Source of the DNA: Candidatus Entotheonellaceae bacterium
GTDB lineage: Bacteria > Tectomicrobia > Entotheonellia > Entotheonellales > Entotheonellaceae
DNA length: 64,000 bases
Direction: 5' to 3'
NCBI GenBank assembly: GCA_965238075.1
Contig: OZ250173.1
Coordinates: 2,304,001-2,368,000 of the forward strand
How positions within the stretch are numbered: position 1 is the first letter of the stretch; every line of letters starts with the position of its first letter. Shown in pieces: positions 6,479 through 18,039 of this stretch. The translations under genes were made by a program, and so were the position numbers. Under the pieces are notes generated by a model. The model worked only from the letters and a program-made list of their open reading frames with translations, was not told the origin of the DNA and made no database searches.

Positions 6479-7378
6479 GTGATCGAGATACGACCCATGT
6501 CGATTCATATCGGCGCGGAAATTCACGGTGTCGATCTGACCCAACCGCTGGCGTCGGAAGCGGTGCAAGAGATTCGCGCGGCCCTGCTGCAGTGGAAGGT
6601 GGTGTTTTTTCGCGACCAACACCTCAATCATCAACAGCAGACCGACTTTGCCCGGCAGTTCGGCCAACTCACCCCTGGGCACGTGGTGTTTGGCAACGAC
6701 GCCACCTATCCGGCCGTTTACTCGGTGGCCAAACACCGCATGGCGAATCGCCACCAACGCCAAGGGGTGATGAAGCCCTGGACGGGTTGGCACACCGACA
6801 TCACCGCCGCCATTAACCCACCAGCCGCCTCCATTTTGCGCGGCGAGATTGTTCCACCCTACGGCGGCGACACGCAATGGACCAACCTGGTGGTCGCCTA
6901 TGCGAACCTGTCGCCCACCTTGCAGGGCTTTATCGACGAGTTGCGCGCCGTGCACCGCTATGCCGCCCCGCAAACCGCCCAGGATACCGAGGAATATAAC
7001 GAACTGGTGCGCCGCTGTACGCTGGTGAGTGAGCACCCGCTGGTGCGGGTCCATCCCGAAACGGGCGAGCGCGCCCTGTATTGCAGCCCGTCGTTTCTCA
7101 AGTCAATCGTTGGCCTGACGCCGCGCGAGAGCGAGCAATTGCTGGAACTCCTATGGGAACACGCCATCCGGCCGGAATTCACGGTGCGCTTCAAGTGGGA
7201 ACCGGGCAGCCTGGCGTTTTGGGACAATCGCTCGACCGCCCACCTCGCCCCGCGCGATATCTTTGCGACCGATTTTGATCGGCAGTTCTACCGCATCACC
7301 CTCATGGGCGACATCCCGGTGGGGGTTGACGGCAAGGAGTCCGTGTCGGTCGCCGGCGATCCCATCACGTCTGTATGA
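6479..7378 (+). CDS. TauD/TfdA family Fe(II)/2-oxoglutarate dioxygenase
   Basis: GAEIHGVDL, WHTD (HxD), GGDTQW, HPLVRVHPETG, WDNRSTAH. Confidence 0.93.
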   Translation: MIEIRPMSIHIGAEIHGVDLTQPLASEAVQEIRAALLQWKVVFFRDQHLNHQQQTDFARQFGQLTPGHVVFGNDATYPAVYSVAKHRMANRHQRQGVMKPWTGWHTDITAAINPPAASILRGEIVPPYGGDTQWTNLVVAYANLSPTLQGFIDELRAVHRYAAPQTAQDTEEYNELVRRCTLVSEHPLVRVHPETGERALYCSPSFLKSIVGLTPRESEQLLELLWEHAIRPEFTVRFKWEPGSLAFWDNRSTAHLAPRDIFATDFDRQFYRITLMGDIPVGVDGKESVSVAGDPITSV

Positions 7379-7416
7379 AAGGCGCCTGCCACAGCCATTG
7401 CCCGGCGTTTGGGCAC

Positions 7417-7449
7417 AAAAAAACCCCGGAGGCGGGATGCCTCCGGGGT
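7417..7449 (-). terminator. Rho-independent terminator of a minus-strand small transcript
   Basis: 11-bp stem ACCCCGGAGGC/GCCTCCGGGGT with an A7 run on the plus strand (U-tract on minus). Confidence 0.85.
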
Positions 7450-7515
7450 CGCGGTGGGCTGCTTGGACTAGCCGAGGCACGTGTGTGCCGACGCCTATGC
7501 GCCCAAGCCGATGCC

Positions 7516-7551
7516 TCAAGCCTCAGCCACCTCGCTGATCGTGTGTTGCAT
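7516..7551 (-). CDS. Putative small ORF MQHTISEVAEA (11 aa) inside a ~170-nt structured transcript
   Basis: SD AGAAAGGAGGTGATC directly upstream of the ATG; own promoter and terminator. Confidence 0.5.
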   Translation of the reverse strand: MQHTISEVAEA

Positions 7552-7579
7552 TAGATCACCTCCTTTCTTGCGTGCCGCA

Positions 7580-7607
7580 AGCATACCATTCCGCAACGTC
7601 GTGTCAA
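7580..7607 (-). promoter_or_regulatory. sigma70-type promoter of the small transcript
   Basis: TTGACA-N16-TATGCT with extended -10 TG. Confidence 0.7.
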
Positions 7608-7669
7608 GCGCCATTTAGGTGGCCCGCGGGCGGCCCTGCAAGCGGGTTCCGGGACGCCTGGACATGCCA

Positions 7670-7698
7670 TTGACTCGACTCCTAATCGCGTCTAGGAT
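7670..7698 (+). promoter_or_regulatory. sigma70-type promoter of the E1/E2 operon
   Basis: TTGACT-N17-TAGGAT. Confidence 0.6.
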
Positions 7699-7772
7699 AA
7701 ACGCCGCTCACGATCAGCCGCGGGCGGAGCCGGCTCCGCCCGCTTGCCATGGTTCAAACGGAGGACGTACTG

Positions 7773-8756
7773 ATGCCAGTTGAAGCTCCCTCGGCGGAAA
7801 AGCTTCTCGACATGTACGCGCGCATGTGGCGCATTCGCCTGTTCGAGGAACAAGCGGAATACCAGTCCAGCCAGGGTAAGGTGATGGGAGCCCTGCATAC
7901 CTACATTGGTGAAGAAGGCGTGGCAGTGCCCGTCTGCGCGCACCTGCAGGACACGGATTACATCACCAGCACCCACCGCGGCCACGGCCACTGCATTGCC
8001 AAGGGCGCCGATATCAGTCGCATGATGGCCGAGCTCTTTGGCCGCTCCACCGGTTATTGCAAGGGCAAGGGCGGCTCCATGCACATTGCCGATTTCAAGA
8101 TCGGCATGCTGGGAGCGAACGGCATCGTGGCCGGCGGGTTCGGGATCGCCACCGGCGCCGGTCTGGCGGCCCAGTTGCGCGGTAGCGGGCAGGTGGCGGT
8201 GTGCTTTTTCGGCGACGGGGCGGCCAATCGCGGTCCGTTTCACGAAAACATCAACATCGGCGCCGTATGGAAGCTGCCGGTGGTGTACGTGTGTGAGAAC
8301 AATCAATTTGCGCAGTGGACGCCGCAGAAGGACGTGACGCTGGTGACCGACATCGCCAACATGTCGCCCGCCTACGGCATCCCGGGCGTGCAGGTGGACG
8401 GCATGGACTCCCTGGCCGTGTACGAGGCGGCCGGCGAAGCGATCGACCGCGCGCGCCGGGGCGAAGGGCCGACCCTGCTGGAGTGCAAGACCTACCGCTT
8501 CCACGGCCACAATTTCGGTGACCCGCAACAGTACCGTACCCGAGAGGAAATCGCCGAGTGGTCCGACAATCGCGATCCCATCAAACAACTGGCGGCGCAC
8601 ATGCGCGACGCCGATGTGCTCAGCGACGAACAGGATCAGGACATCCAGAACACCGCGCAGGAAGAGATCACCGCAGCGGTGCGCTTTGCTGAGAGCAGCC
8701 CGTATCCAACACCGGACGAACTGTACAAAGACGTCTATTCCTACGATATCGGTTGA
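7773..8756 (+). CDS. TPP-dependent acetoin/pyruvate dehydrogenase E1 alpha subunit
   Basis: STHRGHGH, GKGGSMH, GANGIV, GDGA..N TPP motif, TYRFHGH; GGAGG SD before the ATG at 7773. Confidence 0.93.
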   Translation: MPVEAPSAEKLLDMYARMWRIRLFEEQAEYQSSQGKVMGALHTYIGEEGVAVPVCAHLQDTDYITSTHRGHGHCIAKGADISRMMAELFGRSTGYCKGKGGSMHIADFKIGMLGANGIVAGGFGIATGAGLAAQLRGSGQVAVCFFGDGAANRGPFHENINIGAVWKLPVVYVCENNQFAQWTPQKDVTLVTDIANMSPAYGIPGVQVDGMDSLAVYEAAGEAIDRARRGEGPTLLECKTYRFHGHNFGDPQQYRTREEIAEWSDNRDPIKQLAAHMRDADVLSDEQDQDIQNTAQEEITAAVRFAESSPYPTPDELYKDVYSYDIG

Positions 8757-17849: not shown

Positions 17850-17922
17850 TGGAGAATGCGGGATTCGAACCCGCGACCTCCGCCTTGCAAGGGCGGCGCT
17901 CTCCCAACTGAGCTAATTCCCC
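17850..17922 (-). tRNA. tRNA-Ala(TGC)
   Basis: GGGGAATTAGCTCAGTTGGGAGAGCGCCGCCCTTGCAAGGCGGAGGTCGCGGGTTCGAATCCCGCATTCTCCA; CCA not encoded. Confidence 0.96.
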
Positions 17923-17965: not shown

Positions 17966-18039
17966 TGGGCCTGGGTAGAGTCGAACTACCGACCTCACGC
18001 TTATCAGGCGTGCGCTCTCACCAGCTGAGCTACAGGCCC
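17966..18039 (-). tRNA. tRNA-Ile(GAT)
   Basis: GGGCCTGTAGCTCAGCTGGTGAGAGCGCACGCCTGATAAGCGTGAGGTCGGTAGTTCGACTCTACCCAGGCCCA. Confidence 0.96.

Follow-up and report, generated by a model that had tools for sequence, protein, structure and literature searches.

A candidate ribosome-engaging mini-mRNA/small RNA gene of the Ms_IGR-5 / rre kind in a Candidatus Entotheonellaceae bacterium

What is made from a gene whose transcript opens with a 15-nucleotide (nt) complement of the 3' end of 16S ribosomal RNA (rRNA) and then encodes 11 amino acids? This question is raised by a locus at 7607-7415 on the minus strand of the window, which is the 64,000-nt stretch of Candidatus Entotheonellaceae bacterium DNA (contig OZ250173.1, positions 2,304,001 to 2,368,000) analysed here. 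An earlier note on this DNA had described the locus as a self-contained small transcription unit, and its promoter, mini-open reading frame (mini-ORF), structured 3' part and terminator were all confirmed. The note had left the product open between a micropeptide, a dual-function small RNA (sRNA), a ribosome-binding decoy and a tiny selenopeptide. We found that the locus is, with a probability of roughly 0.55, a stand-alone gene for a ~157-nt ribosome-engaging mini-messenger RNA (mini-mRNA)/sRNA of the kind represented by Ms_IGR-5 and the rre genes, and that it is a real conserved RNA gene of this type of family is very probable. In our best reading, selection acts on ribosome binding and on translation at defined positions, the peptide is a by-product, and the RNA would report or use the availability of ribosomes. 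The parts of the gene are as follows.

7607-7415, minus strand: the small-RNA gene overall, with promoter, 16S-complementary Shine-Dalgarno (SD) sequence, 11-codon ORF, folded 3' part and intrinsic terminator
7580..7607, minus strand: sigma-70-like promoter, TTGACA at 7607-7602, a 16-nt spacer and TG-TATGCT at 7585-7580
7554..7568, minus strand: extended SD AGAAAGGAGGTGATC, also given as AGAAAGGAGGUGAUC, the complement of the 16S 3' end
7516..7551, minus strand: mini-ORF, ATG at 7551-7549, MQHTISEVAEA (11 codons), TGA at 7518-7516
7528..7533, minus strand: internal SD-like motif GAGGUG, which encodes Glu-Val and lies 9 nt upstream of the stop codon
7415..7450, minus strand: intrinsic terminator, stem 7450-7422 with 12 pairs (9 G-C) and a 5-nt loop, T7/U7 at 7423-7417

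The promoter agreed with the consensus at 10/12 positions and carried a TG ahead of its -10 hexamer; the consensus scan returned 2 promoter-like sites in 6800-8200, with 0.4 expected. Because of the promoter spacing and the 5' ACAC conserved in the family, the RNA is predicted to start near A7573, which would give it a length of ~157 nt. The SD-to-ATG spacing in this window was 5 nt, the SD match ending 2 nt upstream of the ATG. When the six genomes of the genus were aligned with one further genome, G012 (alignment A1), both promoter hexamers, the SD, the ATG, ISEVAEA-TGA and the terminator were all kept, the terminator of G012 with compensatory changes. The U7 tail had been noted correctly, and the terminator stem, previously given as 11 bp, was found to have 12 pairs.

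The genome's own 16S rRNA terminates in ...GGATCACCTCCTTTCT, and the SD 15-mer was the exact complement of its final 15 bases, so the perfect match claimed from the usual 16S tail holds for the organism's own 16S end; the base following the 15-nt match is a mismatch to this tail. In the 3.35-Mb genome, the 15-mer and each of its 13-mers occurred at this locus and antisense to the ribosomal DNA and nowhere else, and the runner-up complement of the anti-SD measured 12 nt and occurred in one place. By simple arithmetic, a given 15-mer should occur by chance ~0.006 times. The 15-mer was invariant in alignment A1. The pattern used to locate the end of the 16S gene had one match only, near G000:C1 1694130, which suggests that the rRNA operon is single in this genome, and the spacer straight after the mature 16S 3' end at that place reads AAGGAG, complementary to the anti-SD.

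We compared the locus with known RNA families. At gathering thresholds, Rfam recognized two transfer RNA (tRNA) genes in the whole window, both on the minus strand (17850-17922, 74.9 bits; 17966-18039, 73.3 bits), and gave no match at the small-RNA locus. A permissive scan aligned the locus over the full length of RF02471, the Ms_IGR-5 family (model 1-184), with 25.3 bits and an E value of 6e-4. This score is below the gathering threshold of 45 bits, and Rfam-based annotation therefore misses the locus. RF02471 scored 67.5 bits in G015 and 65.1 bits in G014 of the same class, 40.8 bits in G012, and 38.6 bits in an unrelated low-GC genome, and matched 0/14 control genomes. Among loci from the motif scan described below, it reached 179.4 bits at the mycobacterial L058, 67.7 bits at L083 and 66.2 bits at L064. 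We then used a covariance model, R1, built here from 34 sequences across many phyla. R1 gave 93 matches in 96 loci searched, with family members at 46-101 bits; in the window's own genome it found one strong copy (73.6 bits) and two weak further matches (17.1 and 12.2 bits). It united the window with G015, G014, G012, L058, L083 and L064 at 66-97 bits. Since these intermediate sequences score well with RF02471 and all fit R1, the locus is, on sequence comparison, demonstrably homologous to RF02471, though its score falls below the threshold. The earlier note had set its reading against a match to a known Rfam family, and such a match exists in half measure, below threshold (25.3 versus 45 bits) and yet to a homologous family. 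When 20 diverse loci of the motif scan were run against Rfam, 3 scored above the Ms_IGR-5 threshold, 6 below it, 1 from Rhodobacteraceae matched CC2171 below threshold, and 10 were unmatched at E <=0.01.

The window element and Ms_IGR-5 share the order of their parts, namely a 5' ACAC, an extended SD, GAGGUG, a long-range helix to ...CACC, and a terminator. They differ in that the ORF here has 11 codons and places Ser where Ms_IGR-5 has Cys ahead of Glu-Val, the bulge is AGUCC here versus AAUUCC, and helix P2a has a bulged C here. Ms_IGR-5 is filed in Rfam as 'Actinobacteria sRNA' and is treated as non-coding and actinobacterial in the literature searched, in which we found no description of its mini-ORF or of a spread over several phyla, and no match to the peptide string TCEVAAR; the accession RF02471 turned up there in a single paper. 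Li et al. are said to have found it in 2013 in M. smegmatis, by co-immunoprecipitation with heterologous Hfq. In the available portions of later reports, Ms_IGR-5 figures among the sRNAs listed as expressed by Streptomyces lividans and S. avermitilis (PMC8079986, PMC8780764), and ribosome footprints were seen on its homologues in both M. abscessus and M. smegmatis (PMC4974804).

Homologs, for which the earlier note had proposed a search, were found in the genus and far beyond it. A DNA search detected the element in 5/5 same-genus genomes and in G012, altogether in 7/41 genomes including the window's own. A motif scan over one genome per species, with the SD core, a gap of 10-40 nt and WGYGAGGTG as its pattern, returned at least 120 loci. 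The 120 listed loci consisted of 104 with a short ORF, 12 from Rhodobacteraceae with an 18-codon GTG ORF, 1 variant, and 3 inside ordinary genes. These last three (L035, L102, and L116) lay within ordinary long reading frames and were chance matches, which puts the false-positive rate at roughly 3/120. The listed loci carried the labels Actinomycetota, Acidobacteriota, Planctomycetota, Myxococcota, Thermodesulfobacteriota, Rokubacteria, Methylomirabilis, Zixibacteria, Ignavibacteria, Sumerlaeota, Binatia, Heliobacteriaceae and Rhodobacteraceae. Contiguous complementarity to the 16S tail was 13-18 nt in 104/104 of the short-ORF loci, with G-U pairs allowed and a canonical 16S tail assumed. In a sample of 151 genomes taken around the window and across families, 23 were positive, each with exactly one copy; genomes of other families had a match in 11/134 cases. 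The family is annotated only in Actinobacteria though present across distant phyla as a single copy.

We further investigated if the reading frame was conserved. A short ORF was found in the GAG-GUG frame in 104 of the 120 listed loci, compared with 4 and 15 in the other two frames, so the codon-level conservation proposed as a check on the locus was observed for the frame. These 104 ORFs had 11-17 codons, started 5-14 nt after AAGGAGGTG, and ended in x-E-V-x-x-x-stop. Their starts were ATG (62), TTG (29) or GTG (13), and their stops TAG (62), TGA (29) or TAA (13). Exactly 3 codons separated GAGGTG from the stop in 101/120 listed loci, and G012 had a one-codon in-frame insertion in its ORF. 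The 9 real hits that the model found with no motif filter all showed G[A/G]GGUG followed by 9 nt and a stop codon (the ORF of G070 was recognized by eye); in these hits the residue before Glu-Val was C, S, A, R or V, and one lineage had GGGGUG (Gly-Cys). Towards the N-terminus, the residues varied freely across the listed loci. On this comparative evidence and the mycobacterial ribosome footprints, the mini-ORF is very probably translated.

The second half of the ORF is also part of a predicted fold, whose elements are given here.

7536..7558, minus strand: hairpin P1, UGAUC at 7558-7554 (3' half of the SD) with GAUCA at 7540-7536 (codons 4-6), the AUG lying in the loop
7524..7531, minus strand: 5' strand of helix P2a, GGUGGCUG, pairing with 7461-7453
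7453..7461, minus strand: 3' strand of P2a, CAGC(C)CACC, with the anti-SD-like CACC directly upstream of the terminator
7513..7519, minus strand: 5' strand of helix P2b, UUGAGGC, which includes the stop codon and pairs with GCCUCGG at 7478-7472
7472..7478, minus strand: 3' strand of P2b, GCCUCGG (helix 4 of the family alignment, 75% paired, 5/6 pairs changed on both sides)
7462..7471, minus strand: conserved bulge CUAGUCCAAG, the AAUYCC motif of the family, with CUUGGGC at 7507-7501 as alternative partner
7507-7462, minus strand: fold-back CTTGG..GGCAC-ACAC-GTGCC..CCAAG, as read from the sequence
7479..7512, minus strand: variable apical domain including the hairpin GGCAC-ACAC-GUGCC, differing widely in length and sequence among homologues

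The fold energy was -72.3 kcal/mol versus -59.1 kcal/mol for shuffled sequences (z = -3.1), and 0/200 shuffles equalled it, in agreement with the structured 3' part claimed before. Both the minimum-energy and the centroid folds contained P1, with UGAUC paired to GAUCA and AGAAAGGAGG mostly free of local structure. The minimum-energy fold also paired the 5' GCAAGAA (7565-7571) with the U tail of the terminator (7415-7421) on the minus strand. This pairing is doubtful; it may be an artefact of folding or a contact between the 5' and 3' ends that hides the start of the SD.

Covariation was assessed in a model-guided alignment of 93 sequences (A3). Of its cells, 72.6% were paired, compared with 64.0% in shuffles and 18-50% in a control with slid partners. 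Changes on both sides of a pair numbered 207 versus 95 in shuffles, and 0/500 shuffles reached 207, so the structural covariation on which the earlier note had wished to test the locus is present. P2a (helix 2) was 78% paired with both-sided changes at 6/10 pairs, for example GGUGGUUG/CAACCACC and GGUGACCA/UGGUCACC. Even the stop-codon bases covaried with their P2b partners, one pair being A-U in 23 and G-C in 15 sequences and the next G-C in 35, A-U in 17 and G-U in 12. The columns of the AAUYCC bulge were conserved at A 88%, A 70%, U 78%, Y 83% and C 85%, and in homologues the terminator comes right after the CACC strand. The pairing of the bulge with CUUGGGC belonged to the minimum-energy fold and extended over 7 nt in this genus, a length that 3-13 of 200 shuffles also attained. 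No convincing pseudoknot partner of the bulge emerged from the mutual information between alignment columns. When each sequence was searched separately, the longest complement of the bulge in the variable domain averaged 5.0 nt versus 4.25 nt in shuffles and measured at least 6 nt in 23/78, which suggests that such a partner may exist in some lineages including this genus and is not general.

Is it the peptide, then, that has been conserved? If the locus served to make a micropeptide, the effector would be the peptide of 11 residues or its C-terminal x-E-V-x-x-x, and the RNA structure would tune stability and translation. The retention of start, frame and stop in 104/120 listed loci is compatible with this, as is the likeness of the peptides within clades, with LIxxWTCEVAAR in mycobacteria and MSSNHSEVAAA in Pyrinomonadaceae. 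RreB and RreR, the peptides of the alphaproteobacterial rre mini-mRNAs, are likewise well conserved within their own clades, as stated in the available part of their description; the synthetic peptides are, however, unstructured according to the same source, and their overproduction had no phenotype (Hahn et al. 2016, PMC5711450). Between clades, Glu-Val alone was common, and its codons are the RNA motif GAGGUG, still spelt GAG GUG in G035 despite the low GC of that genome; the preceding residue changes, and the lineage with Gly-Cys lacks even this pair. The other conserved codons are strands of P1 and P2 that covary with non-coding partners, and the 5' ACAC and the AAUYCC bulge, both kept across the family, lie outside the ORF. 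Comparison across lineages therefore indicates that the peptide sequence is not conserved, and that GAGGUG 9 nt before the stop and the covarying long-range helices are. The micropeptide reading offered earlier is the weaker one, and we consider it improbable.

The suggestion of a tiny selenopeptide fared worse. Here the UGA at 7518-7516 would encode selenocysteine, and readthrough would add GIGLGA-TAG to give MQHTISEVAEA-U-GIGLGA. A tRNA-SeC gene (anticodon tca) was detected by aragorn outside the window, at G000:C1:617194-617290, a hairpin follows the UGA, and the TGA was kept in 6/6 genomes of the genus. The organism probably uses selenocysteine, though not at the mini-ORF. The homologous stop was TAG or TAA in 75/104 listed loci and covaried with its pairing partner as part of P2b; in G004, which belongs to this genus, the TGA is immediately followed by an insertion of 2 nt that breaks the readthrough frame, and the sequence downstream of the stop is wholly different in G012. 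Because no readthrough frame is conserved and all three stops are used at the same place, we reject this explanation as extremely unlikely. At the same stop codon, a 122-codon frame (7519-7151, minus strand) begins with a TTG that overlaps the TGA (TTGA), crosses the terminator and runs antisense to the neighbouring TauD-family gene; it is probably an accident of high G+C content. Re-initiation at this TTG was considered and dropped, as the 122-codon frame had no Pfam match and other lineages, inspected by eye, had no overlapping start.

We next weighed whether the RNA could be an ordinary base-pairing sRNA. Its seed would be the C-rich AAUYCC bulge or the CACC strand, its targets would be mRNAs in trans, and the SD-like 5' end would be fortuitous. 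Many Gram-positive sRNAs carry UCCC-type seeds, and the conserved unpaired AAUYCC next to the terminator would suit such a role. Ms_IGR-5 and CC2171 are both filed as sRNAs in Rfam, and expression as small RNAs is recorded for Streptomyces and Methylorubrum in the available portions of three reports (PMC8079986, PMC8780764, bioRxiv 2022.01.24.477521). This explanation leaves the conservation of the ORF and the ribosome footprints, as given in the accessible part of PMC4974804, unaccounted for. A seed kept across >10 phyla needs an equally conserved target and none was found, and in part of the lineages the bulge has its complement inside the RNA. On its own we regard the base-pairing reading as quite unlikely; it is compatible with the ribosome-engaging reading as an output arm.

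The rre genes are an experimentally studied analogue of the element. In the available text of Hahn et al. 2016 (PMC5711450), Bradyrhizobium rreB is described as an mRNA of 165 nt whose SD measures 17 nt and whose GTG ORF has 14 codons, and rreR of the Rhodobacter/Roseobacter clade as having 18 codons. The 5' side of the rreB SD is single-stranded and its 3' side lies in a hairpin; the RNA is found in the ribosome fraction, co-sediments with 30S subunits, binds them strongly, is weakly translated, and is stabilised when the start codon is changed to a stop. The genes are reported there only for Alphaproteobacteria, including rre-like genes in Caulobacterales. In the literature searched, this original description was the only paper found for rreB together with Shine-Dalgarno, and no paper linking Ms_IGR-5 with rre genes was found in a search of incomplete coverage. 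Like rre, the window element would be a stand-alone RNA (~165 nt there; ~157 nt here, as read from sequence only) with its own promoter and terminator and a short ORF of <20 codons, and its SD spans nearly the whole 16S tail with a free 5' part and a 3' part predicted to lie in a hairpin (P1). Unlike rre, it has an SD of 15 nt versus 16-17 nt that ends 2 nt before the ATG, whereas the rre SD takes in the GTG's initial base; it has 11 codons versus 14 (rreB) or 18 (rreR); and its host is not an alphaproteobacterium. The fixed-distance internal SD-like motif, the CACC helix and the AAUYCC bulge go unmentioned in the accessible part of PMC5711450.

Twelve loci of the motif scan came from Rhodobacteraceae (L026, L028, L034, L050, L052, L055, L056, L068, L077, L094, L124, and L137). 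They had an 18-codon GTG ORF, GAGGUG, and a CACCUCC strand upstream of the terminator. Three SD-like motifs were seen in these RNAs, namely the 5' SD, GCGAGGUG in the middle of the ORF, and a GGGAGG-like motif 8-9 nt before the stop, together with a true anti-SD copy (CCACCUCC or CCGCCUCC) upstream of the terminator. By these features the variant looks like the published 18-codon rreR mini-mRNA. R1 scored the rreR-like loci at 15-25 bits, in a set pre-selected by motifs shared with the model. One of them, L028, aligned over the full length of RF01867 (CC2171) with 42.5 bits (threshold 75), and the permissive Rfam scan gave no CC2171 match in the window. CC2171 is a Caulobacter sRNA that was validated by northern blot in Methylorubrum extorquens, according to the available part of bioRxiv 2022.01.24.477521. 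It resembles the element here as a small RNA matched, below threshold, by the rreR-like L028, and CC2171 may itself be an rre gene.

These comparisons bear on whether the RNA acts simply as a decoy or sponge for 30S subunits, or as a stabiliser-type SD, so that the RNA holds small subunits or is protected by them and the ORF is incidental. The element has the longest anti-SD complementarity of its genome, and 13-18 nt are found in the family. rreB, too, was found mainly with ribosomes, co-sedimenting with 30S and weakly translated. Its authors argue, in the accessible text, that rreB is much rarer than ribosomes, and its overexpression did not slow growth (PMC5711450). A pure decoy needs neither the in-frame start nor the precise stop, which are conserved far above other frames, and the element is present in one copy per genome. 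In STAB-SD of the Bacillus thuringiensis cry3A mRNA, a 5'-proximal SD-like sequence binds 30S for a purpose other than initiation; it has no start codon and lies on a long mRNA, whereas the window element is a gene of its own whose ORF is conserved. In rnTrpL/peTrpL of Sinorhizobium, a small terminated RNA is both translated and active as RNA, in the available account (PMC6614838), but it differs as the product of an operon attenuator; the window element has no downstream gene. The earlier proposal of a dual-function sRNA or ribosome-binding RNA comes close to the reading reached here, and its pure-decoy form is unlikely.

How, then, might a ribosome-engaging mini-mRNA work? The free 5' end (AGAAAGGAGG...) would dock on the 16S 3' tail through the 15-bp helix, and docking would melt P1, the hairpin in which the 3' half of the SD is held and the AUG presented. 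The ribosome would then translate the 11 codons, the second half of which (GAG-GUG-GCU-GAG-GCU-UGA) doubles as the 5' strand of P2a/P2b, with the anti-SD-like ...CACC before the terminator as partner. A ribosome at the stop codon would have to unwind P2a/P2b. At that point GAGGUG would lie 6 nt upstream of the P-site codon and could hold the ribosome, because 6 nt falls within the SD-to-start spacings of 5-14 nt in the family. The opened P2 would free the CACC strand and AAUYCC for pairings within the RNA or with other RNAs; in this genus the freed bulge could pair with the apical CUUGGGC (7 nt). Opening would probably expose the RNA to decay, so that it is remodelled or degraded. The steps after docking, the remodelling and the purpose are inferred. 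The scheme fits because the frame and the stop position are conserved, the purines of GAGGUG have no partner in the RNA, and the turnover of rreB depends on its start codon. That the peptide is incidental and that translation gates a remodelling of the RNA is given somewhat less than an even chance. A wider version, in which Ms_IGR-5, rre, CC2171 and the window element form one ancient single-copy superfamily in >10 phyla, a ribosome-side counterpart of 6S RNA that would dock on the entire anti-SD tail, be translated over about a dozen codons, park the ribosome at a stop codon by means of the second SD-like motif and so measure free-ribosome capacity, with CACC/AAUYCC exposure or its own decay as output, is at present a rather improbable conjecture.

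Several points weigh against our reading. The SD and WGYGAGGTG are invariant in the 120 listed loci by construction, and the 9 model-found hits are the sole unbiased set. Alignment A3 was made to the model's own structure, which favours it, and its sequences are related, so that the shuffle control overstates the support. P1 was 62% paired across the family, with a register that shifts between lineages and weak covariation. Pairing with CACC could be the sole reason why GAGGUG is fixed, which would make it an anti-anti-SD and no anchor for the ribosome. From near relatives, metatranscriptome contigs 90-99% alike covered 6905-7694 (X1), 6905-7495 (X3), 6905-8033 (X4) and 6905-8084 (X6); they came from a sample of 4 runs in 2 studies and show neither ends, strand nor level, and as they may stem from DNA or read-through they were not counted as evidence of a discrete transcript. 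Homology of the alphaproteobacterial rre RNAs with the window's family is at most plausible. For rreB itself, overexpression had no growth effect and the authors call its function elusive in the available text (PMC5711450). Finally, no target, phenotype or conserved neighbour backed any purpose, with 68 upstream fragments scanned for neighbours.

The neighbourhood of the locus was considered with regard to a cis-acting function. Divergently upstream lies an operon for the E1-alpha, E1-beta and E2 subunits of a 2-oxoacid dehydrogenase, with E1-alpha from 7749 on the plus strand. A promoter-like TTGACT-17-TAGGAT at 7670-7698 (plus strand) faces E1-alpha, ~60 nt from the divergent small-RNA promoter. 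On the other side, a convergent TauD-family gene terminates at 7378, and the small-RNA terminator stops 37 nt short of it. The element might act in cis on the E1/E2 operon or the TauD-family gene as a leader or attenuator, or might regulate either of these neighbours as an antisense RNA, and its divergent and convergent placement would allow this. In five mycobacteria (L040, L058, L063, L078, and L092), the RNA follows immediately on a class IV aminotransferase gene of the same strand, and class IV aminotransferases and the 2-oxoacid dehydrogenase operon could presumably both concern branched-chain amino acids. Against such a role, a strong terminator stands 37 nt before the convergent gene, no co-directional gene follows downstream, and the neighbours change with lineage. 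In the 68 of 101 upstream fragments covered by the scan, which left out 63 downstream fragments, the neighbours were amidohydrolase (10), aminotransferase IV (5), ABC transporter (2), and singletons (3), and no family was recognised in 48. The divergent position to the E1/E2 operon pointed out in the earlier note thus stands, and a functional link to the operon is not supported, as neighbourhoods differ by lineage; cis regulation is very improbable. An attenuator in which the 3' strand of P2b pairs with the 5' stem of the terminator was possible by sequence here and was dropped, no mycobacterial equivalent being visible by eye. In ten Acidobacteriota loci (L022, L031, L038, L045, L070, L071, L076, L088, L090, and L099), the RNA follows immediately on an amidohydrolase gene, which shares its strand in 9/10 and lies on the opposite strand in L090; by their labels six are Pyrinomonadaceae, L099 is Blastocatellia, and L038 and L071 are assigned to the phylum only.

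Together, our results place the locus in a family that is one of few small RNA genes retained in single copy over distant phyla. The window adds a member that scores below the Rfam threshold, in a lineage with no annotation of this family. It also adds evidence that conservation concerns the ORF as such, the covarying helices and an SD-like motif placed 9 nt ahead of the stop codon, and not the peptide, and it provides a bridge to the experimentally studied rreB/rreR mini-mRNAs. In this the locus contributes a member and comparative detail and not a new principle. If the RNA does not sense ribosomes, the annotation is still corrected, in that an 'sRNA' would be translated, and evidence would be needed before its mini-ORF is named a selenopeptide or a bioactive micropeptide. 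If ribosome sensing is true, the family would represent a layer of translational homeostasis that is general and has so far gone unrecognised.

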